From positions 25,437-89,436 of IMG/VR virus record IMGVR_UViG_3300034105_002625: a stretch of 64,000 nt of DNA; one strand, written 5' to 3'. This DNA is from a virus (Duplodnaviria > Heunggongvirae > Uroviricota > Caudoviricetes). The position numbers were made by a program, and so were the translations under genes. Below, piece by piece: positions 4,133 through 54,230 of the stretch. How positions within the stretch are numbered: position 1 is the first letter of the stretch; each line of letters begins with the position of its first letter. A model generated the notes under the pieces. It did no database searches. It was given only the letters and a program-made list of their open reading frames with translations, and was not told the DNA's origin.

Positions 4133-4996
4133 ATGTCTAAAAAACATGTTGTAGTATCCTTAAGTGGAGGAATGGACTCAAGTACTTTATTACTTAGATG
4201 CCTAAAAGAGTATGACACAGTTACTGCTATTAGCTTTGACTATGGTCAAAAACACAGAGTAGAGCTAGAGAGAGCTCAATCATTGGTAAACTATATTGGA
4301 GAAGAATCATCATCACAGACTGAATTACGTTATCGTCAAATTAAACTAGACGGATTAGTTGATCTATTAGATTCAGCTTTAGTAACTGGGGGTAAAGATG
4401 TACCAGAAGGTCATTACGAGCAAGACAATATGAAAGAAACAGTTGTTCCTAACAGAAACAAGATGTTCGCTTCTATTGCTCAAGCAGTAGCTTTATCGGT
4501 TGCAAATCGTACAGGAGAGACTTGTGATATTGCAATGGGAATTCATGCAGGTGATCATGCTGTTTATCCAGACTGTAGACAAGAATTTAGAGATGCAGAT
4601 GATAATGCCTTCAGAATGGGTAACTGGGATGCTGAAAGAGTAGGTTATTTTACACCTTATCTTGATACAGACAAATTCGGTATCTTACAGGATGGAGAAG
4701 TTTTATGTAAAGAGTTGTATTTAGATTTTGATGAAGTTTATTCAAGAACTAATACTTCTTATAAACCAATATGGATACCAGGACCTGAAAGTAAATCAAG
4801 AGTAGAAGAAACTCACAGAACAAAATGGGGTGAATGGTACTCAGATTATAAATCAGCATCTTCAGTAGAACGTATCGAAGCATTTATCAAACTAGGAAGA
4901 AAAGATCCAGTTGCTTATGCAGACGAAACAGGACCAGTAACATGGGAAGTAGCAAGAGATGCAGTTCAAAAAGTATTAACAGAACATAATAATTAA
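4133..4996 (+). CDS. queC: QueC-like 7-cyano-7-deazaguanine (preQ0) synthase homolog, atypical (no C-terminal Zn-Cys cluster, ~60 aa C-terminal extension)
   Basis: PP-loop SLSGGMDSS near N-terminus; QueC-like YPDCRQEF and TPYLDTDK motifs; CxxCxxC zinc ribbon of canonical QueC not present. Confidence 0.7.
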   Translation: MSKKHVVVSLSGGMDSSTLLLRCLKEYDTVTAISFDYGQKHRVELERAQSLVNYIGEESSSQTELRYRQIKLDGLVDLLDSALVTGGKDVPEGHYEQDNMKETVVPNRNKMFASIAQAVALSVANRTGETCDIAMGIHAGDHAVYPDCRQEFRDADDNAFRMGNWDAERVGYFTPYLDTDKFGILQDGEVLCKELYLDFDEVYSRTNTSYKPIWIPGPESKSRVEETHRTKWGEWYSDYKSASSVERIEAFIKLGRKDPVAYADETGPVTWEVARDAVQKVLTEHNN

Positions 4997-5677: not shown

Positions 5678-5887
5678 AACACCCCCCAGTAGATAGGTCC
5701 GCCAAGAAAGTCTTTAAACAACGTGGGAACTGCGGCTCTCCCAATGTGGCTGGAATGTTTTATAAAATACCAATGCTCGCTGTTAATTGATGATGGTGTT
5801 AAACGGATGAAAAAGGGTTTATAGTAATCTAGAGTACAAGCAAATCATCAATCAGAAACCCTGAAAGACCAAGGTTGGTAAAAAAAG

Positions 5888-5972
5888 AATAGGTTGGTGT
5901 CAACGGGAAAGTTCCTGCTAGGGTTAACATGGACGATAAGTCTGGATGAAGGTTCGAATCCTTCACCTATTC
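5888..5972 (+). tRNA. isolated class-II (long variable arm) tRNA-like gene, anticodon unresolved (possibly GCT/Ser-like), followed by genomically encoded CCA
   Basis: perfect 7-bp acceptor AATAGGT/ACCTATT; canonical T-arm GAAGG-TTCGAAT-CCTTC; variable-arm hairpin GGAC-GATAA-GTCT; 3' ...C-CA; anticodon stem is weak. Confidence 0.35.
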
Positions 5973-7190: not shown

Positions 7191-7227
7191 GTTGCTAGAA
7201 AGAATAAAAGTTCGTATATTTAGGTAT
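7191..7227 (+). promoter_or_regulatory. promoter for the tRNA array (GTTGCTAG -33-like element + TTCGTATATTTAGGTAT box)
   Basis: TTG, then 20 nt, then TATATTTA fits the Bacteroidetes -33 TTTG / -7 TAnnTTTG architecture; 44 nt upstream of first tRNA. Confidence 0.55.
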
Positions 7228-7270: not shown

Positions 7271-7354
7271 GGAAGGCGGCCGAATGGACGAGGAGCTTGT
7301 CTTGAAAACAAGTAGCGGGTAACACCGTTGTGGGTTCGATTCCCATGCCTTCCT
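7271..7354 (+). tRNA. tRNA-Ser (anticodon TGA), class II
   Basis: acceptor GGAAGGC/GCCTTCC; anticodon stem CTTGT/ACAAG with loop CTTGAAA; long variable arm; T-arm TGGGTTCGATTCCCA. Confidence 0.6.
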
Positions 7355-7360
7355 CAATAT

Positions 7361-7431
7361 TGCCCGTTCGTATAAAAGTAGTACACATGTCTTTGACACA
7401 TGCGGAGAAGGAGCGTTACCTTCATGGGCAA
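7361..7431 (+). tRNA. tRNA-Gln (anticodon TTG) with non-canonical T-loop AGCGTTA
   Basis: acceptor TGCCCGT/ATGGGCA (7 bp incl. G-U); anticodon stem CATGT/ACATG with loop CTTTGAC; T-arm GAAGG-AGCGTTA-CCTTC. Confidence 0.45.
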
Positions 7432-7443
7432 CAAATTAAATTT

Positions 7444-7514
7444 CTAGTAGCGAAGCTAGGTTACATGCCTCACTTGGACTGAGGAGTACGCAGGTTCGAA
7501 TCCTGCCTATTAGA
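7444..7514 (+). tRNA. tRNA-Pro (anticodon TGG)
   Basis: acceptor CTAGTAG/CTATTAG (one G-U); anticodon stem CCTCA/TGAGG with loop CTTGGAC; T-arm GCAGG-TTCGAAT-CCTGC. Confidence 0.55.
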
Positions 7515-7519
7515 CAATC

Positions 7520-7590
7520 GCCCTCTAGGCTTTAAAGTGAAGCACCTAGCTTTTAACTAGGGTAAGAAGGAGCATTACCTTCAGGGGGTA
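7520..7590 (+). tRNA. tRNA-Lys (anticodon TTT) with non-canonical T-loop AGCATTA
   Basis: acceptor GCCCTCT/AGGGGGT; anticodon stem CCTAG/CTAGG with loop CTTTTAA; T-arm GAAGG-AGCATTA-CCTTC. Confidence 0.45.
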
Positions 7591-7649
7591 CACGGATGAG
7601 ATTGTTACTAATTCATAGAACTGCATGGTGTGAGCGTAGAATTAGATTT

Positions 7650-7720
7650 GCCTCGTTGGCGTAATGGGAGCGTATTTCTTTTACATGGAAATGGCAGTGG
7701 TTCGATTCCACTACGAGGTA
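7650..7720 (+). tRNA. tRNA-Val (anticodon TAC)
   Basis: acceptor GCCTCGT/ACGAGGT; anticodon stem TTTCT/GGAAA with loop TTTACAT; T-arm AGTGG-TTCGATT-CCACT. Confidence 0.55.
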
Positions 7721-7921
7721 CTAAGTAAGTTAATATGCTGTGAAAGCTTCAATGAGCGCAAGTTGAAGTTAGGTGGGTTCGAGCCCCTCTACTGTAGTAA
7801 TAGCCTAAGTCGGAGGCAGCCAAGTAGCAGATAACATATTATAGCCGATTTGGGTTGTGCACCTCGTCCGAGAAGCCCTAATAGTTCCTAATAGTTCGGT
7901 ATGGAACAACTTACTTAAAAT

Positions 7922-7992
7922 GGGGACAACAGGCAAGGTGCCGAGCAGCTCTGTAAAAGCTCACTGGGTAGGTTCGATTCCTACTGGCCCCA
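7922..7992 (+). tRNA. tRNA-like gene, tentative anticodon GTA (Tyr) in a class-I (short variable arm) scaffold
   Basis: acceptor GGGGACA/TGGCCCC (one A:G mismatch); T-arm GTAGG-TTCGATT-CCTAC; 4-bp anticodon stem AGCT/AGCT with loop CTGTAAA. Confidence 0.3.
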
Positions 7993-8098
7993 CAAAGTCA
8001 TGGCATCAAATCCCGGTAGGGGTGCTGACTTAAAATAAACAACGATGGTGAAAATGGAGTCCTGCAGGCTAACCAGAAGTAACAACGAGGGGATAATT

Positions 8099-8171
8099 GG
8101 GGATTAAGCTAATCTAGTGAAAGCGCTAGCCTGAAGAGTTAGAGAGATCGGAGCGTAACCGATAGTCCCCA
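8099..8171 (+). tRNA. tRNA-Phe (anticodon GAA) with non-canonical T-loop AGCGTAA
   Basis: acceptor GGGGATT/AGTCCCC; anticodon stem CTAGC/GTTAG with loop CTGAAGA; T-arm ATCGG-AGCGTAA-CCGAT. Confidence 0.45.
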
Positions 8172-8178
8172 CAATATT

Positions 8179-8251
8179 GGTCTGAAGCTTAAGAGGTATA
8201 CAGCGGAGGTTTGTTAAACCTAGGATAGCAGGTTCGAGTCCTGTCAGACCA
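8179..8251 (+). tRNA. tRNA-like gene, anticodon unresolved
   Basis: perfect acceptor GGTCTGA/TCAGACC; T-arm CAGG-TTCGAGT-CCTG; anticodon arm does not fold canonically by eye. Confidence 0.3.
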
Positions 8252-8478
8252 GCAAAACTACTGAAATTGAATGACACGAGCTTCATACGTTCGAAAGGAG
8301 TCATGCAGTAGTTTAAAATGTTCGTATAGATGTGCTGTGGATACGCAGGGAACACATCGAGTGGGTTAATGATGGTAGTAGGTACACAACACTCCTTAAT
8401 ACTAGGATTGGAGCGAAGGGTTGATGCATACTGCAGGTAATTAACAAGACTGGTTCGATTCCAGTTACGGGCGCAATT

Positions 8479-8550
8479 TCTCCTATAGTAGAATGGTTAG
8501 CACACATCTCTGATAAGGATGAAATGGAAGTTCAATTCTTCCTAGGAGTA
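8479..8550 (+). tRNA. tRNA-Ile (anticodon GAT)
   Basis: acceptor TCTCCTA/TAGGAGT (1:72 mismatch); anticodon stem CATCT/GGATG with loop CTGATAA; T-arm GGAAG-TTCAATT-CTTCC. Confidence 0.5.
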
Positions 8551-8662
8551 CAAAAGTTACCACGCTTGTTCCGTCAGTGGTTGTAAAGTCGAATCAATAA
8601 ACGGAACCCCAAATGGAGGTCTTGCCTTAGTAGACTAAAGATTCTAAACGACAACTTTAAAT

Positions 8663-8745
8663 GGAAAGTAAATCAACTAGGAGTTGAGACCGCTTGCTAA
8701 GCGTATCGTGCCTTCGGGCATGGGGTTCGATACCTCTACTTTCCT
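8663..8745 (+). tRNA. tRNA-Ser (anticodon GCT), class II
   Basis: perfect acceptor GGAAAGT/ACTTTCC; anticodon loop TTGCTAA on a short G-C stem; variable-arm hairpin GTGCC-TTCG-GGCAT; T-loop TTCGATA; 83 nt. Confidence 0.45.
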
Positions 8746-8955
8746 CTTTAAAAACCTGGTCCCTGTCCTCATAAAGTGTTTAAGGAACACAGGAGTTGAA
8801 TGTGCATTCGGGGCGGATAGTGGTGGGACACTGATAAATAAAATCTTAAGCACAAAGATAAGTTAACGGGTTCTTATCAACTACCGACTTGATCTAGGAT
8901 CGAAAATATCTCATAAGTATTTTCAGACAAGAGCGTAACTTGTAGTCGGTACAAA

Positions 8956-9034
8956 GCTAAAGTGGTGAAATTGGTAAACACTCCCATCGAGAGATGGTGC
9001 GGATTTTGTAGGTTCGAGTCCTACCTTTAGTGTA
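8956..9034 (+). tRNA. tRNA-like gene, anticodon unresolved
   Basis: acceptor GCTAAAG/CTTTAGT; T-arm GTAGG-TTCGAGT-CCTAC; 79 nt. Confidence 0.3.
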
Positions 9035-9038
9035 TATG

Positions 9039-9110
9039 GTGTTTCTAGCTTAATCGGTAAAGTGCTTCACTGTGAATGAAGAGAACAGGGTTCGAAACCC
9101 GGAAACACAC
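9039..9110 (+). tRNA. tRNA-His (anticodon GTG) with extra 5' G(-1)
   Basis: anticodon stem CTTCA/TGAAG with loop CTGTGAA; 8-bp-type acceptor GTGTTTC/GAAACAC; T-loop TTCGAAA. Confidence 0.5.
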
Positions 9111-9204
9111 GACGACGCCCAAAGGACGATCGACCTGGCCAGAGACTAGTTCTTGCAAACTCAATGCCTAAAGTTGAGCGGCCAATCTATGGGATTGGCT
9201 TTAC

Positions 9205-9277
9205 ATCCCTGTGGTGAAACGGTAAACACAACGAGTTTAAGCCTCGTAAGCTGCAGGTTCGACTCCTGTCAGGGATA
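9205..9277 (+). tRNA. class-I tRNA with apparent anticodon TAA (Leu-type anticodon without long variable arm), A73
   Basis: perfect acceptor ATCCCTG/CAGGGAT; anticodon stem ACGAG/CTCGT with loop TTTAAGC; 3-nt variable region; T-arm GCAGG-TTCGACT-CCTGT; 73 nt. Confidence 0.4.
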
Positions 9278-9282
9278 CAAAT

Positions 9283-9355
9283 GGTCTTGTAGCATAAATG
9301 GAAATGCACTTGAATACGAATCAAGAGATTGTAGGCTCGAATCCTACCAGGACTT
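9283..9355 (+). tRNA. tRNA-Arg (anticodon ACG)
   Basis: acceptor GGTCTTG/CAGGACT; anticodon stem CTTGA/TCAAG with loop ATACGAA; T-arm GTAGG-CTCGAAT-CCTAC. Confidence 0.6.
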
Positions 9356-9360
9356 CAATT

Positions 9361-9432
9361 GCCCTATTAGTTAAACGGATATAACGAATCTCTTCTAAAG
9401 ATTAATTCTAGGTTCGATTCCTGGATGGGGTA
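9361..9432 (+). tRNA. tRNA-Arg (anticodon TCT)
   Basis: acceptor GCCCTAT/ATGGGGT; anticodon stem AATCT/AGATT with loop CTTCTAA; T-arm CTAGG-TTCGATT-CCTGG. Confidence 0.6.
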
Positions 9433-9495
9433 CAAAAAAATCGTATTGGAAGAAAGTTTGATCAACTTTCGTAGGTTAAGCGATATCCTACAAAT

Positions 9496-9566
9496 GCAGG
9501 TCACAGACAAGGTGTCGGTACGGTCTCCAAAACTGCTACGGGTAAGTTCGATTCTTACGGTCTGCG
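9496..9566 (+). tRNA. tRNA-Trp (anticodon CCA)
   Basis: acceptor GCAGGTC/GGTCTGC; anticodon stem CGGT/ACTG (+1 mismatch) with loop CTCCAAA; T-arm GTAAG-TTCGATT-CTTAC. Confidence 0.5.
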
Positions 9567-9598
9567 CAAAATAAATTGTTTCATTTAAAATTAAAATC

Positions 9599-10105
9599 AT
9601 GAGTAAGTACCAAAGAACACTGGTAATTGATTCAAGCTTTATGGCAAGATCTATTATCTCTACCGAAAGAGCTTTCGTGATTTCGTATAAGGGTAATGCA
9701 GAAGTTATAGCTGAACATCCAGAAACATTCGGATTAGTAAATCCGGATTTAAAAATTAATAAACCTTCAATCATTAGGGTTTACAAATACGTAAAACAAG
9801 ACATTCAAAAAGTTCCTCTAACAAGAGAGAACATTTATCGAAGAGATAATTACGAATGTGTTTATTGTGGATCAAGTTACTTGAAGTCACTAACACTTGA
9901 CCATGTCATCCCACAATCAAAAGGTGGAGCAAATGCTTGGGATAATTTAGTAACAGCATGTAGAACTTGCAATTCAGAAAAAGCAGATTTAACTCTTGAG
10001 GAATATGGTAAAGACATAGTAGAACCAAAAAGACCTCATTATCTAATGCTTATGAAACAGTTAACATACATTCCAAAAGAATGGGAAACATTTTTATTTT
10101 TCTAG
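9599..10105 (+). CDS. free-standing HNH homing endonuclease inserted in the tRNA array
   Basis: 168 aa; CVYCGSSY...LDHVIPQSKGGANAWDNLVTACRTCNSEK is an HNH/zinc-ribbon motif; located between tRNA-Trp and the second promoter of the array. Confidence 0.8.
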   Translation: MSKYQRTLVIDSSFMARSIISTERAFVISYKGNAEVIAEHPETFGLVNPDLKINKPSIIRVYKYVKQDIQKVPLTRENIYRRDNYECVYCGSSYLKSLTLDHVIPQSKGGANAWDNLVTACRTCNSEKADLTLEEYGKDIVEPKRPHYLMLMKQLTYIPKEWETFLFF

Positions 10106-10113
10106 TAAAAAAA

Positions 10114-10150
10114 GTTGCTAGAAAGAAATAAAGTTCGTATCTTTAAGTAT
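10114..10150 (+). promoter_or_regulatory. promoter (GTTGCTAG + TTCGTATCTTTAAGTAT box) for the second half of the tRNA array
   Basis: same bipartite motif as 7191-7227, immediately after HNH stop. Confidence 0.5.
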
Positions 10151-10227
10151 AAGAAAGAAACATCACCTACTACGTAACGCACGATCGACGACACGTACTG
10201 TCTGGCAGGTCAGGCTAGGTGATAAAT

Positions 10228-10297
10228 GGGCAGGGTGGTCTTGGAGGCCGGTGGCATTGCAACAGCTACAGACAGAGTTCGATTCTCTGCTTGCCCT
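10228..10297 (+). tRNA. tRNA-like gene, tentative anticodon GCA (Cys)
   Basis: acceptor GGGCAGG/CTTGCCC; T-arm CAGAG-TTCGATT-CTCTG; anticodon stem TGGC(A)/(A)GCTA with loop TTGCAAC. Confidence 0.35.
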
Positions 10298-10393
10298 CAT
10301 TGAAGGTTCGACCCTCTACCATCTTGTATTACACCTACAGATGGATATCGAGAGGGAGCTACCGATTGATAAGTGACCGCACATGCGGTAAAT

Positions 10394-10465
10394 GCCCGAG
10401 TGGTGGAACGGTAGACACGCTAGTCTTAGGAACTAGATACTGAGGGTTCGAATCCCTCCTTGGGT
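10394..10465 (+). tRNA. class-I tRNA with apparent anticodon TAG (Leu-type anticodon without long variable arm), A73
   Basis: acceptor GCCCGAG/CTTGGGT; anticodon stem CTAGT/ACTAG with loop CTTAGGA; 5-nt variable region; T-arm GAGGG-TTCGAAT-CCCTC; 72 nt. Confidence 0.4.
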
Positions 10466-10545
10466 ACGATAGTAGGACCGGGTTACCGGATATGGGTTCC
10501 TTAATTGGACAGAAGGACTGGAGTCCTAGTCGCCTACAAAATAAA

Positions 10546-10613
10546 ATTAGAGTTCGCTTATAGTAAAGCAGCAGGGGCTAACCTGCAGAAGGGATTCCAA
10601 CACCCACTCTAAT
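10546..10613 (+). tRNA. degenerate tRNA-like element / possible tRNA pseudogene
   Basis: perfect 7-bp acceptor ATTAGAG/CTCTAAT; D-stem GCTT/AAGC; anticodon-like hairpin GCAGG-GGCTAA-CCTGC with a 6-nt loop; weak T-arm GGG-ATTCCAACA-CCC. Confidence 0.25.
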
Positions 10614-10619
10614 TTACTT

Positions 10620-10693
10620 GCTCTCGACGCACAAATGGTGGTGCACCGGATTTGTAACCCGGAATAGAGCCAGTTCGATCCTGGCCGAGAGCT
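10620..10693 (+). tRNA. tRNA-Thr (anticodon TGT)
   Basis: perfect acceptor GCTCTCG/CGAGAGC; anticodon loop TTTGTAA on CCGG(A)/(C)CCGG stem; T-arm GCCAG-TTCGATC-CTGGC. Confidence 0.55.
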
Positions 10694-10701
10694 CAATAAA
10701 T

Positions 10702-10774
10702 GCGAATGTCGTATAACGGCTCATTACTCTTGACTTCCAATCAAGGAATGAGGGTTCGATTCCCTCCATTCGCT
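10702..10774 (+). tRNA. tRNA-Gly (anticodon TCC)
   Basis: perfect acceptor GCGAATG/CATTCGC; anticodon stem CTTGA/TCAAG with loop CTTCCAA; T-arm GAGGG-TTCGATT-CCCTC. Confidence 0.6.
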
Positions 10775-10780
10775 CAAAAT

Positions 10781-10852
10781 GGCCCTATCGTCTATCGGTT
10801 AGGACACATGGTTTTCATCCATGAAAGTCGGGTTCGACTCCCGGTGGGGCTA
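10781..10852 (+). tRNA. tRNA-Glu (anticodon TTC)
   Basis: acceptor GGCCCTA/TGGGGCT; anticodon stem CATGG/CCATG with loop TTTTCAT; T-arm TCGGG-TTCGACT-CCCGG. Confidence 0.6.
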
Positions 10853-10857
10853 CAATT

Positions 10858-10929
10858 GGGGCTATAGTATAACGGCTATTACAATGGTTTTGCAAATCAT
10901 AAATTGGAGTTCGATTCTCCATAGCTCCA
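10858..10929 (+). tRNA. tRNA-Ala (anticodon TGC) with G3:U70 identity pair
   Basis: acceptor GGGGCTA/TAGCTCC gives G3:U70; anticodon stem ATGGT/ATCAT with loop TTTGCAA; T-arm TGGAG-TTCGATT-CTCCA. Confidence 0.65.
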
Positions 10930-10934
10930 CAAAA

Positions 10935-11007
10935 GGTCTATTCGTTCAACGGCTAGGACACTACCCTGTCACGGTAGGGATGAGAGTTCGATTCTCTCAT
11001 AGACCGC
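10935..11007 (+). tRNA. tRNA-Asp (anticodon GTC)
   Basis: perfect acceptor GGTCTAT/ATAGACC; anticodon stem CTACC/GGTAG with loop CTGTCAC; T-arm GAGAG-TTCGATT-CTCTC. Confidence 0.65.
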
Positions 11008-11012
11008 TATAT

Positions 11013-11086
11013 CGCGAGTTGGTAGAAGATGGTATCTCGCTAGGCTCATAACCTAGAGGTCGGGGGTTCGAATCCCTCACTCGCTA
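11013..11086 (+). tRNA. tRNA-Met (anticodon CAT)
   Basis: anticodon stem CTAGG/CCTAG with loop CTCATAA; T-arm GGGGG-TTCGAAT-CCCTC; acceptor CGCGAGT/ACTCGCT with one terminal mismatch. Confidence 0.5.
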
Positions 11087-11091
11087 CTAAT

Positions 11092-11166
11092 GTCCTTTTA
11101 GCTCAGCCCGGTTAGAGCAGCTCGCTCATAACGAGAAGGTCACAGGTTCGAATCCTGTATAGGACA
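11092..11166 (+). tRNA. second CAT-anticodon tRNA (elongator Met, or Ile2 after lysidine modification)
   Basis: acceptor GTCCTTT/ATAGGAC; D-arm GCTCAGCCCGGTTAGAGC; anticodon loop CTCATAA on CTCG/CGAG stem; T-arm ACAGG-TTCGAAT-CCTGT. Confidence 0.5.
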
Positions 11167-11196
11167 CAAAAATTTTATCCAATAAAAATAAAAGTT

Positions 11197-12998: not shown

Positions 12999-13649
12999 AT
13001 GAAAATTACATTAGAAAAAGATCAAAGAATCTTCTTTACATCAGACACACATTACGCTCACTCAAACATCTGTAGTGCTACTACAAACTGGACTGAGTCT
13101 TCGAACTTGACAAGAGAATTCAATTCACTTGATCATATGAACCAAGTACTTGTTGATAACATCAACAACATGGTTGGTGAAGATGATATCTTAATTCATT
13201 TAGGAGATTTTAGCTTTGGAGGATTTGATAAGATACAAGAATTCAGAAGTAGAATCCTTTGTAAAAACATTCACTTGGTACTTGGAAATCATGATCACCA
13301 CATTGAAAGAAACAAAGAAGGAGTTCAAAAACTATTCTCTTCAGTACAAAACTACTTGAGATTAGAAGTAAGAAAGCCAATTAATAAGGCATTAACAGAC
13401 AAGCATATTTTCGTTTGTATGCACTATCCAATTGCGTCATGGCATGATATGAACCAAGGAGTAATTCACTTGCATGGCCACGTGCATTTACCTTCACACC
13501 TACGAATAGCAGAGGGTAAAGCAATGGATGTTGGAGTAGATGGAAATGGTTTAGAGCCTTTATCACTAGGAGAGATCCTTATGATTATGAAAGACCAACC
13601 AATTAGAAAATTAGAGTTACCAAAGGATCATCACGAAAAAAGAATCTAA
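12999..13649 (+). CDS. calcineurin-like metallophosphoesterase (putative RNA-end-healing 2',3'-cyclic/3'-phosphatase)
   Basis: 216 aa; GDFSFGG and GNHDHH motifs of the metallophosphatase superfamily; adjacent to P-loop kinase and RNA ligase. Confidence 0.65.
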   Translation: MKITLEKDQRIFFTSDTHYAHSNICSATTNWTESSNLTREFNSLDHMNQVLVDNINNMVGEDDILIHLGDFSFGGFDKIQEFRSRILCKNIHLVLGNHDHHIERNKEGVQKLFSSVQNYLRLEVRKPINKALTDKHIFVCMHYPIASWHDMNQGVIHLHGHVHLPSHLRIAEGKAMDVGVDGNGLEPLSLGEILMIMKDQPIRKLELPKDHHEKRI

Positions 13650-13650
13650 T

Positions 13651-14037
13651 ATGAAAGAGTTATTTTTATTAAGAGGATTACCTGGATCAGGTAAATCAAC
13701 ATTTGCAAAGGCATTAACAGGTGTTTATACTATAGAAGCAGATAAGTACTTTATGGATGGAGATGAATATAAATTTGATCCGTCTAAACTAAAAGATGCA
13801 CATGCTTGGTGTCAAAATACTACACGGGTTTGGATGACAACTGGTGTAAAAAGAATCACAATAGCAAACACATTTACTCAGGAATGGGAAATGCAACCAT
13901 ACTACGATTTAGCTAAAGAGTACGGATACAGAGTTTACTCTTTGATTGTAGAAAATAGACATGAAGGGGTAAATGAACATGGAGTACCAGAAGAAAAATT
14001 AGTACAAATGAAAAATAGATTCGAGATCAAGCTATGA
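13651..14037 (+). CDS. P-loop polynucleotide-kinase-like protein
   Basis: 128 aa; Walker A GLPGSGKST at residues 9-17; size and context match AAA_33 / Pnk kinase domains. Confidence 0.55.
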   Translation: MKELFLLRGLPGSGKSTFAKALTGVYTIEADKYFMDGDEYKFDPSKLKDAHAWCQNTTRVWMTTGVKRITIANTFTQEWEMQPYYDLAKEYGYRVYSLIVENRHEGVNEHGVPEEKLVQMKNRFEIKL

Positions 14038-14252
14038 GAGTAGTAGAAGAGTTTGATGTTCAAGGAAGAGTTATTAAACAAAAAATAGCAGGCCCTTACT
14101 ATGATTCTATTTGGACTTACGAGTATCAAGGAGATACAGTCATTGAAAAAAGAAGTGATGCTGTTTGGACTAAAATTATAAATCATAAGGATAAGACATC
14201 TAAATTAGTTTATCCTGATAAAAAAGAATACAATATAACTTATAATACATAA
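14034..14252 (+). CDS. hypothetical protein
   Basis: 72 aa ORF, start overlaps upstream stop (ATGA). Confidence 0.3.
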   Translation: MRVVEEFDVQGRVIKQKIAGPYYDSIWTYEYQGDTVIEKRSDAVWTKIINHKDKTSKLVYPDKKEYNITYNT

Positions 14253-14255
14253 GAA

Positions 14256-15398
14256 ATGGAAAATAATAACAGTGTTTGCTTTATAGCAAAAATAAATGAA
14301 GTAAGAGCAATTGAAGGAGCAGATAACATCGAACTTGTAATCGCAGGTGGGTGGAATGCTATTACTAAAAAAGGTGAATTTAAAGTAGGTGATGAAACAA
14401 TCATTGCAACTACTGATGCAGTTATACCAGAATCTCTTTCTGAGGAAATGGGAGTTGCTTCTTACCTAAGAAAAGGAGGTAGAGTAAGAACTGTTAAACT
14501 AAGAGGAGTTTATTCTGAATGTTTAATCATTCCAATGACTTACCTTAGGGGTAAAGCCACAATGGGGGATTGGGATTTAAAAGAAGGAAGTGACTGCATG
14601 GAACTATTAGGTATCACCAAATACGAACCACCAGTTAAACAAATTCAACTTGCTTCAGGTAGAAAAATCAAATGGAGAGACAATCAAAACTTCCATATCT
14701 ATTACAAATTCCCAAACCTTAAAAACGTTGATGGAATGTTTACAGAAGAAGATACAGTAGAGATTTCTCGTAAAATTCATGGTACAAATGCTAGATACGG
14801 TATTGTAAAAAAGACTAAATTGTCATTCTGGGATAAAGTAAAAAAATTCTTTAGATTAGCTGATAAGTGGATTAACTACGAATACATTTACGGTTCACAT
14901 AACTGTGAGAAAGGATCTGACTCTCAAGGATTTTATTCTGAAGATGTTTGGAAAACAATTGCTGAGAAGTATGATATTAAAGCTAAGCTTTGGAAATATG
15001 TTAAAGATACAGCTAATATTGTAGACATTGGAAGTGGTATAGTACTCTATGGAGAAATTTATGGAGCAGGTATTCAAAAGAACTATGACTATGGATTGGA
15101 TGATATTAAATTTATAGGATTTGATACAACTATGAAAGGTGACTATAATTCACCAGCGGGTACTTACGGTGCATTTCATTCACTAGACTTACCTTATATT
15201 GAAGTACTTTATTTTGGACTTTGGAATCAAGAAGTACAGGATAAGTTTGTATTTAACAACTTCATTGAAGGAACAAAAGTACCACATGAAGGAATTGTAA
15301 TCAAACACAGTTCAGGAGATAGAAAAAAAGTAGCAAAGGTAATCAATCCAGACTATTTGATCTACGGAGAGAAGAATGATGTAGGAGATTCACATTAA
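14256..15398 (+). CDS. ATP-dependent RNA ligase (Rnl2/Rnl5-like) with N-terminal OB-fold tRNA-binding-like domain
   Basis: 380 aa; nucleotidyltransferase motif I KIHGTN (lysine-adenylate site, as in T4 Rnl2); first ~100 aa resemble the Myf/Trbp111 tRNA-binding OB fold (…GADNIELVIAGGWNAI…LRGVYSECLIIP). Confidence 0.65.
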   Translation: MENNNSVCFIAKINEVRAIEGADNIELVIAGGWNAITKKGEFKVGDETIIATTDAVIPESLSEEMGVASYLRKGGRVRTVKLRGVYSECLIIPMTYLRGKATMGDWDLKEGSDCMELLGITKYEPPVKQIQLASGRKIKWRDNQNFHIYYKFPNLKNVDGMFTEEDTVEISRKIHGTNARYGIVKKTKLSFWDKVKKFFRLADKWINYEYIYGSHNCEKGSDSQGFYSEDVWKTIAEKYDIKAKLWKYVKDTANIVDIGSGIVLYGEIYGAGIQKNYDYGLDDIKFIGFDTTMKGDYNSPAGTYGAFHSLDLPYIEVLYFGLWNQEVQDKFVFNNFIEGTKVPHEGIVIKHSSGDRKKVAKVINPDYLIYGEKNDVGDSH

Positions 15399-27094: not shown

Positions 27095-27805
27095 ATGTCA
27101 AATAAAAAATTTATCGACGGTACAGAATTAGTACAAGCCGGATTCGCTAATGGTATTTCATCTCAATTAGCTAAAAAACAATTAACAGATGGTCCAGAGG
27201 CAAGACTAACTGAAGTAGAAAAGCAACACATAATCGAAGATGCAGCAGAAGCATTTGGTAACTTCTTAACAGCTTTAGGTACTGATTGGAAGAATGATCC
27301 AAATTCATCTGATACTCCAAAGAGAGTTGCAAAGGCTTATGTAAATGATCTATGGGCAGGAAGGTATGCACCACTTACTCAAATCACAGCATTTCCTTCA
27401 GATGGATATGATGGAATAGTTCAAGAGAGTAACATACCAGTTACTTCAATGTGTTCACATCACCACCAAACAATCTCCGGAGAGGTAAGCATAGCTTATA
27501 TTCCCTCTAAAGATGGAAAGGTAGTTGGGCTTTCAAAACTAAATAGAATTGTAGAGCAGTTTGCTAGACGTGGAGCAATCCAAGAACAGTTAACAGTTGC
27601 AATTCATAATGCAGTAGATAAAATCTGTGAAGGGAATCTAGGAGTAGCAGTAGCAATCTCAGCAACACATAACTGCGTATCATGTAGAGGAATTAAACAT
27701 CAAGGAGCTTCAATGCAAACAGCAAAGCTAACAGGATGTTTCTTAGAAGAAGATTCAGCAAGAGCAGAATTCTATTCAAATATTAAACTCGGAAAAAATA
27801 ACTAA
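27095..27805 (+). CDS. folE: GTP cyclohydrolase I
   Basis: 236 aa; MCSHHHQ (cf. CEHH) and HNCVSCRGIKHQG (cf. HxCMxxRGV) signature motifs. Confidence 0.85.
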   Translation: MSNKKFIDGTELVQAGFANGISSQLAKKQLTDGPEARLTEVEKQHIIEDAAEAFGNFLTALGTDWKNDPNSSDTPKRVAKAYVNDLWAGRYAPLTQITAFPSDGYDGIVQESNIPVTSMCSHHHQTISGEVSIAYIPSKDGKVVGLSKLNRIVEQFARRGAIQEQLTVAIHNAVDKICEGNLGVAVAISATHNCVSCRGIKHQGASMQTAKLTGCFLEEDSARAEFYSNIKLGKNN

Positions 27806-30785: not shown

Positions 30786-31712
30786 ATGACACAAGAATTA
30801 AATCAAGCAGAAGTTGTAAAGATTGCAGGAAAGCATCTAGGACAAGTAGGTGGAGCAGGTTATAGCGATACTTATGATCCAAGCCTATTGGTAGAAATTC
30901 CACGTTACTTGAATAGAGAAGCGTATGGAATTGATGATAACAGTTTACCATTCGTGGGAGGAGATGTATGGAATGCATACGAAGTATCTGCAATTACTAC
31001 AAAAGGACTTCCAGTTGTTGGAATGTTAAAGATTTGGTATCCAGCAGATTCAAAACTTCACGTAGAGTCTAAATCAATTAAATTGTATTTGAATTCATTC
31101 AATATGACTCAATTGGGAGAAACAGATCATGAATGTATCAAGTTACTAAAACAAAGAGTAAAGAAAGACTTATCTGACTTACTACAAACAAAAGTACAGG
31201 TAGAGATGTTTACCTCAGAGCATTCTCCAAGCTATGCCTTCAAAGGATATGCACCACTAGATGCTTTAGTAGATCTAAATGCAATTGAATTTACTTCTTA
31301 CCATTCAGACGCTACACAATTGGAAACAGAAGAAGTAGATGAGGATGTTGAAATAGGAGAAATAAAAGTACAATCAAATCTTTTAAGATCAAATTGTAGA
31401 GTAACAAATCAACCAGACTGGGGTGATGTATTTATTCACATCAAGCCTAAAGCAGGAGTTGTTCCTAATCTACAATCACTAGCAAAATATATTGTAAGTC
31501 ATAGACAAGTAAGTCACTTCCATGAAGAGATTTGTGAAATGATCTACATGCACTTAAAAGAAGCTTACAATCCAGAAGAATTAATGGTAGCTTGTCTTTA
31601 CACTCGTAGAGGAGGATTAGATATTAATCCAATTAGAGCTTCACATAAGAAACTAATACCAGGATTCTTTACAGACATTACTTGTAGAATGGCTAAAACA
31701 TTACGTCAATAA
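30786..31712 (+). CDS. queF: QueF-type NADPH-dependent 7-cyano-7-deazaguanine (preQ0) reductase, bimodular type
   Basis: 308 aa; QueF motif ESKSIKLYL and catalytic-Cys block CRVTNQPDWGDV. Confidence 0.65.
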   Translation: MTQELNQAEVVKIAGKHLGQVGGAGYSDTYDPSLLVEIPRYLNREAYGIDDNSLPFVGGDVWNAYEVSAITTKGLPVVGMLKIWYPADSKLHVESKSIKLYLNSFNMTQLGETDHECIKLLKQRVKKDLSDLLQTKVQVEMFTSEHSPSYAFKGYAPLDALVDLNAIEFTSYHSDATQLETEEVDEDVEIGEIKVQSNLLRSNCRVTNQPDWGDVFIHIKPKAGVVPNLQSLAKYIVSHRQVSHFHEEICEMIYMHLKEAYNPEELMVACLYTRRGGLDINPIRASHKKLIPGFFTDITCRMAKTLRQ

Positions 31713-34449: not shown

Positions 34450-36398
<1,949 letters not shown>

Positions 36399-41099: not shown

Positions 41100-42542
41100 A
41101 TGAAAGAAAAATTTCGTTATGTTAAGAAAGAAGATCGTAAAAAGATACTTCTGTTATGCGATGATATTAGGATGCATTCCGGTATCGCAACGATGGCTAG
41201 AGAGATTGTTGTAGGAACATCTCATCACTTTAACTGGATCAATCTAGGAGCTGCAATTAACCACCCCGAAGCAGGAAAAGGATTTGACATCTCAGGAGAG
41301 GTTAATAGGTTAACAGGGCTAGAAGATTCAGATGTAAAGGTATTGCCTAACAATGGTTATGGAGATGCTATGCAAATTAGAGCTTTAATTGCACAAGAAA
41401 AGCCAGATGCTATTTTTATCTTTACAGATCCAAGGTACTGGGTATGGTTATTTGAAATAGAAAGAGAGATTAGAAATGAAATTCCTTTGATGTACTTAAA
41501 CATTTGGGATGACTATCCAGCTCCTCTTTATAACAAACCGTACTACGAGTCATGTGATTTGTTAATGGCAATCTCAAAACAAACTAAAAATATTAATGAA
41601 ATAGTTTTAGGAGAAGCAGTTGAGAATAAGATTTTAAAATATGTTCCTCATGGAATAAATGAAGAGCACTTCTTTCCAATGACCTCAGTAGATCAACTTG
41701 AGACTTTAGGTCAATTTAAAAAAGACTTATTTCAAGGAAAGGATATCGAATTCGTAGCATTCTTCAATTCAAGAAACATCAGAAGAAAATCTCCAGGAGA
41801 TGTAATTCTATCTTATAGAATGTTCTGTGATTTAATCGGAGAAGAGAAAGCTAAGAAATGTGCTTTAGTAATGCACACACAGGCTGTAGATGAAAACGGT
41901 ACAGACCTTTATGCAGTAAGAGAAGCAATTTGTGATGAGAGTTATGTAAATGTATTCTTCTCACAAGAGAGATTAGATACTCCACAAATTAATTTACTTT
42001 ATAACATAGCTGATGTAGGATTGCTTATCACTTCAAATGAAGGATGGGGATTATCTCTAACTGAGACTATGATGGCAGGTAAAATGATCATAGCCAACGT
42101 AACAGGCGGTATGCAAGATCAAATGAGATTTACAGATGAGAATGGTGAGTGGATTAACTTCACTCCTGACTTCCCTTCTAACCATAGAGGTACTTATAAA
42201 GAGCATGGAGAGTGGGCAGTGCCTGTCTATCCTTCAAACATCTCAATGGTAGGTTCAGTTCCAACTCCATACATCTTCGATGATAGGTGTGCACCAGAAG
42301 ACGTAGCTAAAGCTTTAGAAGAGGTTTACAACATGGGGAAAGAAGAGAGAGATAGAAGAGGATTATTAGCTAGAGAATGGGTAACATCAGATGAATCAGG
42401 AATGTCAGCACGTCAAATGTGTACAAACGTTATTGATGCAATGGATGAGACATTTGAAAAGTTTACTCCAAGATCTAGATTTGACCTATATAAAGTAACA
42501 GACAGACCAAAAAAATATATCACACATAAATTAATATACTAG
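41100..42542 (+). CDS. glycosyltransferase, GT4-like (GT-B fold)
   Basis: 480 aa; NEGWGLSLTETMMAGKMIIA resembles the E-x-FG…EAMAxGxPVI GT4 donor-binding motif. Confidence 0.55.
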   Translation: MKEKFRYVKKEDRKKILLLCDDIRMHSGIATMAREIVVGTSHHFNWINLGAAINHPEAGKGFDISGEVNRLTGLEDSDVKVLPNNGYGDAMQIRALIAQEKPDAIFIFTDPRYWVWLFEIEREIRNEIPLMYLNIWDDYPAPLYNKPYYESCDLLMAISKQTKNINEIVLGEAVENKILKYVPHGINEEHFFPMTSVDQLETLGQFKKDLFQGKDIEFVAFFNSRNIRRKSPGDVILSYRMFCDLIGEEKAKKCALVMHTQAVDENGTDLYAVREAICDESYVNVFFSQERLDTPQINLLYNIADVGLLITSNEGWGLSLTETMMAGKMIIANVTGGMQDQMRFTDENGEWINFTPDFPSNHRGTYKEHGEWAVPVYPSNISMVGSVPTPYIFDDRCAPEDVAKALEEVYNMGKEERDRRGLLAREWVTSDESGMSARQMCTNVIDAMDETFEKFTPRSRFDLYKVTDRPKKYITHKLIY

Positions 42543-42544
42543 TT

Positions 42545-43831
42545 ATGAGTAAACCTACATTAGTAGTAAGCTGTCCAGTAGACACTTACTCAGGATATGG
42601 AGCAAGAGCAAGAGACTTTGTACAATCAATTATCGATACAGATAAGTACGAAGTAAAGATCCTATCACAAAGATGGGGAGGTACTAGATTTGGATATCTT
42701 AAAGATCATAAGAATGAATCTTTAGCCTCTAGAATTATACCACAACTAACACAACAGCCAGACATCTGGATTCAAATTACAGTACCGAATGAATTTCAAA
42801 AGGTTGGTAAATACAATATTGGACTAACAGCAGGAATTGAAACTACAATCTGTGATCCTTCCTGGATTGAAGGATGTAACAGAATGGACTTAGTATTAGT
42901 ATCAGCACAACATGCTAAGAAAGTATTTGAAGATAGTAAATTCAATATGCAAGATTCAAATACAGGACAAGTAACAGGACAGTTAGCACTTAGTACAAAG
43001 GTAGAAGTTCTATTTGAAGGAGCTGATATAGAGAAGTATGCACCATTGTCATGGCCAGTCACATTAGATCTTTCAACTATACCGGAAATGTTCTGCTTCC
43101 TAACAGTAGGTCACTGGCTTCAGGGGTCTCTTGGAGAGGATAGAAAGAATATTGGATACACTATTAAAGCATTCTTAGAAACATTTAAGAATAAAAAAGA
43201 TCAACCGGCACTTATTTTAAAAGTACAAGCAGGAGCAGGAACCTCTATCATGGATAGGGAAGCAGTGTTGGATAAAATTGATGCAATCAGAAAGACAGTA
43301 AAGGGAAAGTTACCAAACATTTACGTACTACATGGAGAAATGTCTGATGCTGAAGTAAATGAACTATACAACCACGGTAAGGTAAAGGCGATGATCTCTT
43401 TAACAAAAGGAGAAGGATTTGGAAGACCTCTACTAGAATTTAGTTTAATAAACAAACCAATCATAGCTTCAGGATGGTCAGGGCATATTGACTTCCTTGA
43501 TAATCGATATACAAAACAAATAGGAGGAACTCTTACAAACGTACATCCATCAGCAGCTGTAGACAAAATGATCTTACAAGAAAGCCAGTGGTTTACACCA
43601 GACGATGCTCTTGTAGGAAAAGCTCTTAAGGATGTATTTGAGGATTATAAACCATATAAGGAATTAGCCAAAAGACAGGGGTATAAGAGTAGAACTGAGT
43701 TCTCGTATGATAAGATGAGAGAGACGCTAGATACTCTTCTAACACAGTACATTCCTGAATTCCCTAAGCAAGTACAGTTAAAGTTACCTCAACTTAAGAA
43801 AATAGAACTACCAAAATTAACTAAAATATAA
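42545..43831 (+). CDS. glycosyltransferase, GT4-like (GT-B fold)
   Basis: 428 aa; GEGFGRPLLEFSLINKPIIASGW matches GT4 motif. Confidence 0.6.
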   Translation: MSKPTLVVSCPVDTYSGYGARARDFVQSIIDTDKYEVKILSQRWGGTRFGYLKDHKNESLASRIIPQLTQQPDIWIQITVPNEFQKVGKYNIGLTAGIETTICDPSWIEGCNRMDLVLVSAQHAKKVFEDSKFNMQDSNTGQVTGQLALSTKVEVLFEGADIEKYAPLSWPVTLDLSTIPEMFCFLTVGHWLQGSLGEDRKNIGYTIKAFLETFKNKKDQPALILKVQAGAGTSIMDREAVLDKIDAIRKTVKGKLPNIYVLHGEMSDAEVNELYNHGKVKAMISLTKGEGFGRPLLEFSLINKPIIASGWSGHIDFLDNRYTKQIGGTLTNVHPSAAVDKMILQESQWFTPDDALVGKALKDVFEDYKPYKELAKRQGYKSRTEFSYDKMRETLDTLLTQYIPEFPKQVQLKLPQLKKIELPKLTKI

Positions 43832-44289
43832 TGGAAGAAAAAATGTCAATCTGTCCACATTGTGGAGGAAATGCTTGCTATGAACAAGCAGTAACAGAAG
43901 AAGTAACAACAAGCTTTTGCTTTGGATGCGGGTATTCAACTTCAACTCTAATGGTTGAAGGAGGAGATTTAGTAAACAAAACACTAGAAGCATCACCAGA
44001 ACTTTATAAAGATCTTATGTTTGTAAGTGAAGATAAGAAAGTATGGTTCCCTTCTACAGTTACTCTTCCAAATAAAGGAATGGTATTCTTAGACGGAACA
44101 GCAAAAGAGAATTGGAGATGGGCAGCAGTAACCTCAGTAGAGATTCTAGAAGAAGAGAAAGCTAAATTTCCAAAAGGTCAGACAACTAAAATGGATATGA
44201 AAAATATCAAACATTTTGAGAAAGAAGATTTTATGGAAGCATTAGATGCTATCAAATTCTTTGATGTAGAAGTTGCTGAATCAGAATAA
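43831..44289 (+). CDS. zinc-ribbon protein
   Basis: 152 aa; CPHCGG…CFGCGYS. Confidence 0.3.
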   Translation: MEEKMSICPHCGGNACYEQAVTEEVTTSFCFGCGYSTSTLMVEGGDLVNKTLEASPELYKDLMFVSEDKKVWFPSTVTLPNKGMVFLDGTAKENWRWAAVTSVEILEEEKAKFPKGQTTKMDMKNIKHFEKEDFMEALDAIKFFDVEVAESE

Positions 44290-44291
44290 AT

Positions 44292-44308
44292 TTCTTATCT
44301 TAATAGGA
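44292..44308 (+). promoter_or_regulatory. promoter box TTTCTTATCTTAATAGG abutting ATG (leaderless candidate)
   Basis: box ends at ATG 44308. Confidence 0.35.
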
Positions 44309-44925
44309 TGAAAATAAGTTATGCAATAACAGTTTGTAATGAGTTGGAGGAGATTAAACGCTTAGTGACTTTCCTCCTTCTTACTAAACGTAAAGAAGAC
44401 GAAGTAGTTATTTTATTTGATGAGAAGAACGGAACAGATGAAGTATTTGATTACATAGAGTCTCAAGTTTATCACTGTGAAGTATTCTGTGAAAAGTTTG
44501 AAGGACACTTTGCTGATTGGAAAAATGAACTTACATCACACTGTACAGGAAAGTACATCTTTCAAATAGATGCAGACGAACTTCCAACTGAAGACCTTAT
44601 TGTAAACCTTCCGTACATCTTAGAAGTTAATCAAGATGTAGATGTATTTCTTGTACCAAGAATTAATACAGTAGAAGGACTAACACTTCAACATATTCAG
44701 AAATGGGGATGGAATGTAAATGATAAAGGTTGGGTAAACTTCCCAGACTACCAATGGAGAATTTATAGAAATGATCCTAGTATAAAATGGAAGAACAGAG
44801 TACACGAAGTACTAGAAGGATTTAAAACATCCACACTACTTCCAGCAGAGGAGATGTATTGCCTATATCATCCAAAGACAATCGACAGACAAGAGAAACA
44901 GAATAATTATTACGATACATTATAA
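44308..44925 (+). CDS. glycosyltransferase family 2-like
   Basis: 205 aa; N-terminal ISYAITVCNE… typical GT2 Rossmann start; DxD-like IDADE. Confidence 0.5.
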   Translation: MKISYAITVCNELEEIKRLVTFLLLTKRKEDEVVILFDEKNGTDEVFDYIESQVYHCEVFCEKFEGHFADWKNELTSHCTGKYIFQIDADELPTEDLIVNLPYILEVNQDVDVFLVPRINTVEGLTLQHIQKWGWNVNDKGWVNFPDYQWRIYRNDPSIKWKNRVHEVLEGFKTSTLLPAEEMYCLYHPKTIDRQEKQNNYYDTL

Positions 44926-44932
44926 ATTAGTT

Positions 44933-46243: not shown

Positions 46244-46244
46244 T

Positions 46245-48081: not shown

Positions 48082-48108
48082 ATAACATAAAAAGATAATT
48101 TTATAAAG

Positions 48109-54212: not shown

Positions 54213-54230
54213 GTTACATATATACATACA

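Follow-up and report, generated by a model that had tools for sequence, protein, structure and literature searches.

The tRNA array described here raises the question of whether leucine, and perhaps also tyrosine, can be carried by phage tRNAs in which the variable arm is reduced to a few nucleotides. The array lies in a window of 64,000 nucleotides (the whole stretch of DNA that was analyzed, positions 25,437 to 89,436 of IMG/VR record IMGVR_UViG_3300034105_002625), which belongs to a large uncultivated phage, is AT-rich (G+C = 34.5%) and carries all of its genes on the plus strand. Its nucleotide relatives among cultured phages are restricted to Flavobacterium phage immuto and Cellulophaga phages, with short matches. 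Textbooks present tRNA-Leu as a long-armed molecule. According to a review, the long arm is found on tRNA-Leu everywhere except in animal mitochondria (PMC9976931). The initial annotation of the window, which drew attention to Leu and Tyr anticodons on short-armed scaffolds, held that bacterial tRNA-Leu and tRNA-Tyr always have long arms; this is too strong, as Streptomyces coelicolor has a type-I tRNA-Leu(CAA), the one bacterial exception studied so far (PMC6614811). Altogether, we consider it probable, at roughly 80%, that two 73-nt genes of the array, with the anticodons UAA and UAG, are functional phage tRNA-Leu genes, derived from class-II tRNA-Leu by loss of the arm.

Structure and leucine identity of the short genes

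Both 73-nt genes were called as tRNA-Leu cloverleaves by ARAGORN, with the anticodons taa and tag, and each of them scored 63.3 bits against the Rfam tRNA model RF00005 (gathering score 29; E = 2e-11 in the 64-kb window), which places them second and third among the tRNA matches of the window. In the covariance model (CM) alignment no non-standard pair was flagged in either gene: both have a 7-bp acceptor stem, a 3-bp Leu-type D stem and 5-bp anticodon and T stems, together with a variable region of 5 nt (AAGCU in Leu(UAA), AUACU in Leu(UAG)), U48 and the discriminator A73, while CCA is not encoded. The anticodon loops have 7 nt, with U33 and a purine at position 37 (UUUAAGC and CUUAGGA, respectively), and Leu(UAG) starts with a G1.U72 pair, as does Escherichia coli leuZ. 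The class-I cloverleaf with a short variable region and A73 was thus correctly recognized in the initial annotation, as was the anticodon register, on which ARAGORN and the CM agree; the end of the UAG gene, which had been set at 10465, was one base short, as A73 is at 10466. Moreover, the variable region of more than 10 nt with a stem-loop that defines class II is absent from 9205-9277 and 10394-10466, and also from the elements at 7922-7992 and 8956-9032 discussed below. With a Leu anticodon and a variable loop of 4-5 nt that retains nucleotide 48, the short genes belong to the known category of type-I tRNA-Leu; they carry the sequence-level marks of leucine identity and lack the class-II hallmark only.

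Homology points to leucine along the whole molecule. When leuZ, leuW and leuT of E. coli K-12 were aligned with the Leu genes of the window and with phage tRNA-Leu of 79-84 nt, the match extended over the entire tRNA with a single gap, which corresponds exactly to the variable arm. The first 25 nt of Leu(UAG) (GCCCGAGUGGUGGAAC-GGUAGACAC) are nearly those of E. coli leuZ, G1.U72 included, and the best E. coli matches of all three Leu genes of the window, in a comparison with 12 tRNAs of eight isotypes, were Leu genes. In cultured phages, the annotated features under the listed full-length or 5'-half matches were all tRNA-Leu, some of the matches being unannotated. Blastn found no match for either 74-nt query in 5,426 E. 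coli genomes, nor for the UAA gene in cultured phages, the queries being too short for such large databases. The leucine identity set of E. coli consists of A73, A14, A15-U48, G18G19 and A20a, and explicitly excludes the long arm (PMC9976931); the complete set is present in both genes of the window.

To characterize the family, a strict pattern (Leu-type D arm, UAR anticodon and short spacing to the T loop) was searched in IMG/VR, where it matched 52 contigs. From these 52 loci and the window, 26 distinct 73-nt sequences were aligned. U8, A14, A15, G18G19, A20a, U48 and A73 occur together in 25 of the 26, A73 and a variable region of exactly 5 nt in all of them, and U48 is invariant. In the T loop, T54, C56 and A58 never vary and U55 hardly does, and essential invariance also holds for U33, the UAR anticodon (its third base giving the isoacceptor) and the tertiary nucleotides. 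The alignment fits a class-I cloverleaf with 99.2% of cells paired, and 14 of 20 pairs are doubly changed; none of 500 shuffles reached the observed pairing and covariation values, and sliding the partners by 1-3 columns lowered pairing to 37-53%. Double changes were also found within single isoacceptors (10 of 20 pairs in the UAA set, 12 of 20 in the UAG set), and therefore the covariation is not merely a difference between two paralogues. Overall, purifying selection on the class-I fold of the short Leu family, that is, on the anticodon, the tertiary nucleotides and the four stems, is clear.

A third Leu gene, absent from the initial annotation, is the 77-nt Leu(GAG) gene. Its D arm is of the Leu type, and its variable region, of about 10 nt, forms no stem. 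The anticodon loop is irregular: it can be read as 7 nt, with A33 in the place of U33, or as 6 nt.

Descent and distribution of short-armed tRNA-Leu

The 52 loci also hold tRNA-Leu genes with the same acceptor stems and D arms, arms of 11-17 nt and a total length of 79-85 nt. Outside the arm, identity to long-armed genes of the same anticodon is 71-75% for the UAA gene of the window and 81-87% for the UAG gene (here against phage genes of 80-81 nt), while the two short genes of the window are only 56% identical to each other. As the short genes are closest to long-armed genes with the same anticodon, the arm was lost separately in the two isoacceptor lineages, at least twice. A second scan, which constrained only the 5' half of the gene, returned at least 120 matches. 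Among the matches listed, 109 are new loci with Leu genes all of 78-87 nt, in addition to 11 loci already known, so that Leu gene lengths are bimodal (73 nt or at least 78 nt) and the short genes are a minority of this tRNA-Leu lineage.

Within the 52 loci each Leu anticodon occurs once (86 combinations of locus and anticodon, with one dubious duplicate), and phages were seen with a short UAA and a long UAG gene, with the reverse, or with both genes short. As there is one gene per anticodon, and short and long forms stand in for each other, the short genes replace the long ones and do not duplicate them. In the same loci, Ser genes always have 81-89 nt, and Tyr genes have 80-84 nt.

The strict pattern was also searched in one genome for each of 185,579 bacterial and archaeal species, where it was found in six places, of which only two or three are clear short-armed tRNA-Leu genes. 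One is on a 4-kb contig with 15 tRNAs that was binned as Saccharibacteria and looks like a phage array. Another belongs to a four-tRNA islet of Flavobacterium ajazii (NZ_JAAEHL010000003.1, tRNAs at 2158-2595; contig L057 in our set), composed of the short-armed Leu(UAG), Ile(UAU), Asp and Arg(UCU). The islet is flanked by genes for an RNase T-like exonuclease, an RLIG1-like RNA ligase and RlaP, and by an ABC-3C system (AAA_23/DUF3732 + MC3), and it resembles a counter-defence or defence island that combines tRNAs with repair.

GenBank records of cultured phages contain annotated short tRNA-Leu genes too. Maribacter phage Panino has one of 73 nt (UAG) beside a Leu(UAA) gene of 84 nt, Gordonia phage Phendrix has two of 75 nt and Streptomyces phage Dennebes one of 75 nt; in the Phendrix and Dennebes arrays, Ser and Tyr genes stay at 83-87 nt. 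These are tRNA-Leu genes of class-I length like those of the window, in the two actinophages with long-armed Ser and Tyr genes beside them, and Panino and Phendrix carry a long-armed Leu gene as well. The short gene of Panino has the same Leu-type D arm, whereas those of the actinophages have another D arm, of 4 bp, which suggests separate origins. Short-armed tRNA-Leu is therefore widespread in phages and not peculiar to this array. A literature search, which was incomplete and may have missed some reports, found no paper on short-armed tRNA-Leu in phages, nor any that remarks on the short genes annotated in Panino, Phendrix and Dennebes.

Compared with known systems, the phage genes resemble several in part. 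The class-II phage tRNA-Leu genes of 78-87 nt and leuZ, leuW and leuT share their acceptor stem and D, anticodon and T arms, but have a variable arm of 10-19 nt against 5 nt in the window. The type-I tRNA-Leu(CAA) of S. coelicolor likewise has a 5-nt variable loop, coexists with type-II tRNA-Leu and serves bacterial translation (PMC6614811). It differs in being an actinobacterial chromosomal gene with the anticodon CAA, in which A73 is not used and a special LSD domain of leucyl-tRNA synthetase (LeuRS) is needed, while the phage genes keep the E. coli-type identity set; judged by their nearest relatives, which are long-armed phage tRNA-Leu, they look like an origin independent of the Streptomyces gene. 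Animal mitochondrial tRNA-Leu(UUR/CUN) also lacks the long arm and is recognized mainly through A73 and A14 (PMC9976931); it is however organellar, has a dedicated LeuRS and often has degenerate D and T loops, whereas the elbow of the phage tRNAs is fully canonical. Finally, engineered minimal E. coli tRNA-Leu tolerates loss of the arm if A73 and the D/T-loop tertiary interactions stay (PMC9976931), but these variants are laboratory constructs, and the phage genes are natural and conserved.

Phages thus hold a large natural collection of arm-less tRNA-Leu. This amounts to a natural experiment on which parts of a tRNA are constrained by a synthetase, in which Leu loses the arm, Ser always keeps it and Tyr almost always does. 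The collection also makes compact Leu scaffolds available for engineering, and warns that filters based on length or on isotype models may mis-score phage tRNAs.

Proposed decoding and charging, and loss of the arm

UUA and CUA, the codons cognate to the two short genes, are the two commonest Leu codons of the phage: in open reading frames (ORFs) of the window that reach 100 codons, 45% of Leu codons are TTA and 23% are CTA, together 68%. A role as nonsense suppressors was considered and rejected, as the anticodons 5'-UAA-3' and 5'-UAG-3' read UUA and CUA codons and not stops. The meaning of the codons was checked by aligning ThyA and GroEL of the phage with the E. coli proteins (53% identical each). 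TTA sites correspond to Leu in 20 of 33 cases and to Val in seven, CTA sites to Leu in six of 14 and to Ile, Val or Met in seven, and across 115 ThyA homologues Leu accounts for 85% at the TTA positions. No other amino acid is conspicuous, and the standard leucine meaning of UUA and CUA holds in these alignments.

In the working that we propose, the short Leu genes would be transcribed together with the array and the transcripts processed, CCA would be supplied by a CCA-adding enzyme, presumably that of the host, and the host LeuRS would leucylate the tRNAs through A73 and the D/T-loop core, after which they would decode UUA and CUA as leucine. The arm would have been reduced to a minimal 5 nt, leaving the acceptor stem, Leu-type D arm, anticodon arm, T arm and tertiary core intact. 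Expression and CCA addition are predicted from sequence; charging by LeuRS is expected because the identity nucleotides are kept, and in view of two published studies (PMC6614811; PMC9976931). Streptomyces LeuRS charges its natural type-I tRNA-Leu (Fan et al., NAR 2019, PMC6614811), and the shortest variable loop that allows good charging is 5 nt including nucleotide 48 (PMC6614811), a minimum that the short phage family matches exactly. No synthetase gene, a phage LeuRS included, was found in the 64-kb window, the largest ORF of which, and the only one with the length that a LeuRS would require, is a PolA of 777 aa.

Some observations weigh against functional short tRNA-Leu genes. The Streptomyces type-I tRNA-Leu(CAA) was left uncharged by E. 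coli LeuRS, and a short loop placed in a type-II tRNA-Leu lowered efficiency to 14% (PMC6614811), so that tolerance by a Flavobacteriia-type host LeuRS is not guaranteed. In addition, the sample on which the meaning of CUA rests is small, with its six Leu among 14 sites, and the neighbouring Leu(GAG) gene, given its loop, may be a non-decoding or otherwise special tRNA.

Relaxed constraint is the simplest explanation for loss of the arm: small deletions would have been fixed in phage genomes until the loop reached its structural minimum. Leu could shed its arm because LeuRS does not need it, and Ser keeps its arm because SerRS does; the 85-nt tRNA-Ser(UGA) of the same array is a comparator, showing that long arms are retained where the synthetase requires them.

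Counter-defence may be an addition to relaxed constraint, not an alternative to it. Loss of the arm would then have been selected as a disguise that hides a working tRNA-Leu from host toxins or nucleases that recognize the arm, and the phage would go on decoding UUA and CUA while the tRNA-Leu of the host is inactivated. The disguise would span several phage lineages, and perhaps tRNA-Tyr in this one; the effectors could be nucleotidyltransferases of the MenT/AbiE type or a bacterial analogue of Schlafen. Arm-dependent toxins have precedents: MenT3 anchors on the long variable loop and no longer modifies tRNA efficiently once the loop is deleted (PMC11541572), AbiEii, an abortive-infection toxin, shows an apparent preference for class-II tRNAs (bioRxiv 10.64898/2026.01.19.700257), and in eukaryotes SLFN11/12 restrict viruses through cleavage of type-II tRNAs, among them tRNA-Leu(UAA) (PMC13191261). 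The repeated, independent loss of the arm is also in favour, as is an RNA "heal and seal" repair cassette that directly adjoins the array downstream and would be part of the same counter-defence. This cassette is a split set of a phosphoesterase, a P-loop kinase resembling polynucleotide kinase and an RNA ligase with RNA_ligase and PHA02142 OB-fold domains, and it implies that host defences that cleave tRNA matter for this phage. Moreover, the only clear chromosomal copy of a short gene, that of F. ajazii, lies between RNA-repair genes and an ABC-3C conflict system. Nevertheless, the Ser genes and most of the Tyr genes of the same arrays keep their arms, many sister phages retain one long-armed Leu gene, and relaxed constraint with a deletion bias explains the pattern without selection; no arm-directed toxin is known in Flavobacteriia, and no search for one was made here. 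We regard selection for disguise as an unlikely contribution; if it is true, loss of the arm as defence evasion would be a new move in the tRNA arms race between phages and bacteria.

The initial annotation had also suggested nuclease decoys or a recoded identity. Decoys, i.e. tRNA shapes that soak up nucleases, or decaying pseudogenes, remnants dead for translation, would be in keeping with the aberrant anticodon loop of the adjacent Leu(GAG) gene and with several irregular tRNA-like elements in the array. The constancy or near constancy of the anticodons, U33, purine-37 and the tertiary nucleotides over 26 sequences, compensatory change in all four stems, and the fact that the short genes are the only genes of the phage for their anticodons make this very improbable for the Leu pair. 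Recoded identity, in which scaffolds with Leu anticodons would be charged with another amino acid, fares slightly worse still: the scaffold has the shape of non-Leu tRNAs, and CUA sites are slightly more often Ile, Val or Met than Leu in the small E. coli comparison, but the tRNA body is Leu-type and of no other isotype, all leucine identity nucleotides are kept, UUA sites in GroEL and ThyA are mostly Leu with no single alternative dominating, and rewriting 68% of the Leu codons would alter the whole proteome. Lastly, a true fold with another anticodon or with a long arm found no supporting point and is next to impossible, as two independent programs give the same register, pairing collapses from 99% when the columns are slid, and 73 nt leave no room for an arm. 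Functional phage tRNA-Leu genes are thus the reading to which homology, identity nucleotides, covariation, one gene per anticodon and codon use all point, and of the "genuine minimalist" tRNAs put forward in the initial annotation the Leu pair is well supported, while the Tyr candidate is reasonable.

The tyrosine candidate and other features of the window

The 71-nt element at 7922-7992 had been listed, with less certainty, as a short-armed tRNA with the anticodon GTA. The CM alignment agrees with this in the anticodon loop (CUGUAAA, anticodon GUA), a 5-nt variable region (ACUGG), G1-C72 and A73. The bacterial tyrosine determinants are A73, U35 and G1-C72 (PMC9976931); G34-U35-A36, A73 and G1-C72 are all present in the element and invariant among its homologues. 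It recurs in five contigs (L052 and L010, identical, L019, L053 and L006), and among its four distinct sequences double changes occur at pairs 7-66 and 30-40 and at two T-stem pairs, with none in slid controls. Its position is also informative. The order in the window is Ser-Gln-Pro-Lys-Val-[7922]-Phe-Asn-Ile-...-Leu(GAG)-His-Leu(UAA)-Arg-Arg, and contig L022, which has the same gene order, has a tRNA-Tyr(GUA) in the 7922 slot, between Val and Phe. The L022 gene has 82 nt when the first G is included (80-81 nt in the ARAGORN call), and shares with the element the acceptor stem GGGGAC./.GGCCCC, the A5.G68 mismatch within it, and A8. The variable region of the Tyr genes of relatives has about 10 nt, against 5 nt in the element. 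In the stretches fetched, no long Tyr gene accompanies the short form in any of its five loci, and the short form is missing wherever a long Tyr gene is present; with the element included, the array covers all 20 amino acids.

Other properties temper this assignment. The score of the element, 27.1 bits, is below the Rfam gathering score of 29, ARAGORN did not detect it in either the default or the relaxed mode, and its minimum-energy fold gives no cloverleaf and is no better than that of shuffled sequences (z = -0.37), a measure that we judged uninformative here and did not use. The element has A8, a 5-nt D loop, a bulged C in the anticodon stem and the conserved A5.G68 mismatch. Its D arm is not alignable with that of longer Tyr genes; the MAFFT alignment with class-II tRNA-Tyr is not structure-aware and is poor in this region. 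In addition, in the Thermus thermophilus complex of tyrosyl-tRNA synthetase (TyrRS) with tRNA-Tyr, the bacterial TyrRS reportedly contacts the long arm. Because of the unalignable D arm and this contact, our confidence is lower than for Leu. The element is probably a reduced tRNA-Tyr, which the host TyrRS might charge, and most likely represents the same process of arm loss acting on tRNA-Tyr. In L006, at 1552-1622, the short Tyr-like gene carries, in place of its own 3' end, the one that typifies the adjacent Trp-like tRNA (..CGGTCTGCG). Five of seven acceptor pairs are left, and the exchange suggests that tRNA genes recombine with one another inside arrays.

The coordinates of the main features are given in Table 1.

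Table 1. Main features of the window, with their positions and the evidence for each
Feature	Position	Strand	Evidence or remark
tRNA-Leu(UAA), 73 nt, type I	9205..9277	+	ARAGORN, Rfam 63.3 bits, alignments, covariation
tRNA-Leu(UAG), 73 nt, type I	10394..10466	+	ARAGORN, Rfam 63.3 bits, alignments
tRNA-Leu(GAG), 77 nt	8956..9032	+	ARAGORN; Rfam 42.2 bits; identical copy in contig L022; fold
Candidate reduced tRNA-Tyr(GUA), 71 nt	7922..7992	+	Rfam 27.1 bits; conservation; array position
Whole tRNA array	7271..11167	+	18 default ARAGORN genes and about 8 further tRNA-like genes (relaxed scans, homology)
tRNA-Ser(UGA), 85 nt, class II	7271..7355	+	ARAGORN, Rfam
Probable tRNA-Ser(GCU), 84 nt, class II	8663..8746	+	Relaxed ARAGORN only
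Promoter-like repeat, 27 nt, copy 1 (TTGCTA-17-TATATT)	7191..7217	+	54 nt upstream of the first tRNA
Promoter-like repeat, copy 2	10114..10140	+	After the HNH gene, ahead of the Cys-Leu(UAG)-... sub-array
HNH endonuclease gene	9599..10105	+	Pfam HNH_5 / HNH; divides the array in two
RNA "heal and seal" cassette	12999..15398	+	Pfam, PHROGs
Phosphoesterase gene of the cassette	12999..13649	+	
P-loop kinase gene of the cassette	13651..14037	+	
RNA ligase gene of the cassette	14256..15398	+	

At the gathering score, Rfam matched tRNAs at 19 places in the window, and a more permissive regional scan gave 20. Relaxed ARAGORN produced overlapping and opposite-strand calls, e.g., a minus-strand Thr(ggt) and a Ser(tga) at 7706-7798, and its calls were used only where Rfam or homologues corroborated them. 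The class-II Ser genes that had been taken as proof that the phage can encode long arms were recovered in part by default ARAGORN, which called Ser(UGA), while Ser(GCU) was found in the relaxed mode only. The two copies of the 27-nt repeat stand one ahead of each half of the array and nowhere else in the window, and their match to a promoter consensus suggests that they may act as promoters. A second metallophosphoesterase gene, outside the repair cassette, is at 18495-19217.

Several other tRNA-like elements of the array are unusual. That at 9495-9566 has the loop CUCCAAA (Trp, anticodon CCA); it is missed by default ARAGORN, matches only the tRNA-Sec model of Rfam (30.4 bits) and is conserved in at least eight related contigs. 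Moreover, four tRNAs, Gln(UUG) at 7361-7431, Lys(UUU) at 7520-7591, Phe(GAA) at 8099-8171 and one with the anticodon CAU at 8883-8952, have a non-canonical T loop (AGCGUUA, AGCAUUA or AGCGUAA, not UUCRANN) and D loops with AGU(G/A) and without GG, and default ARAGORN misses all four. The odd T loop is kept by homologues in 11 related contigs, with compensatory changes in the stem, and 74 such T arms were counted, in 36 of 162 viral loci. The T loop and D loop together look like a co-varied alternative tRNA elbow, and these tRNAs may be more unusual than the short-armed Leu genes.

An isolated 86-nt tRNA-like element at 5887-5972 has a perfect acceptor stem and T arm, while its D and anticodon arms are ill-defined. 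It had been counted as a bona fide class-II tRNA (at 5888), which does not stand: its best Rfam match is to the tRNA-Sec model, at 18.5 bits, and the anticodon assignment is unstable, as relaxed ARAGORN gave Pro(agg) for this element and Thr(ggt) for its orthologue in Flavobacterium phage immuto, which is annotated as tRNA-Cys.

Phages use the preQ0/preQ1 pathway for DNA modification or for queuosine supply. The window carries genes of this 7-deazaguanine pathway, for QueC, a radical-SAM protein (possibly QueE), GTP cyclohydrolase I and QueF (4133-4996, 24773-25558, 27095-27805 and 30786-31712). The GroEL-type chaperonin (Cpn60_TCP1, 546 aa) that was used in the codon comparison is encoded at 34758-36398. 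Finally, 41100-55508 is a long run of sugar-modification and metabolic genes, an unusual cargo for a phage, which includes several glycosyltransferases, a DegT/DnrJ aminotransferase, a TPP-dependent enzyme and an HMGL-like aldolase.

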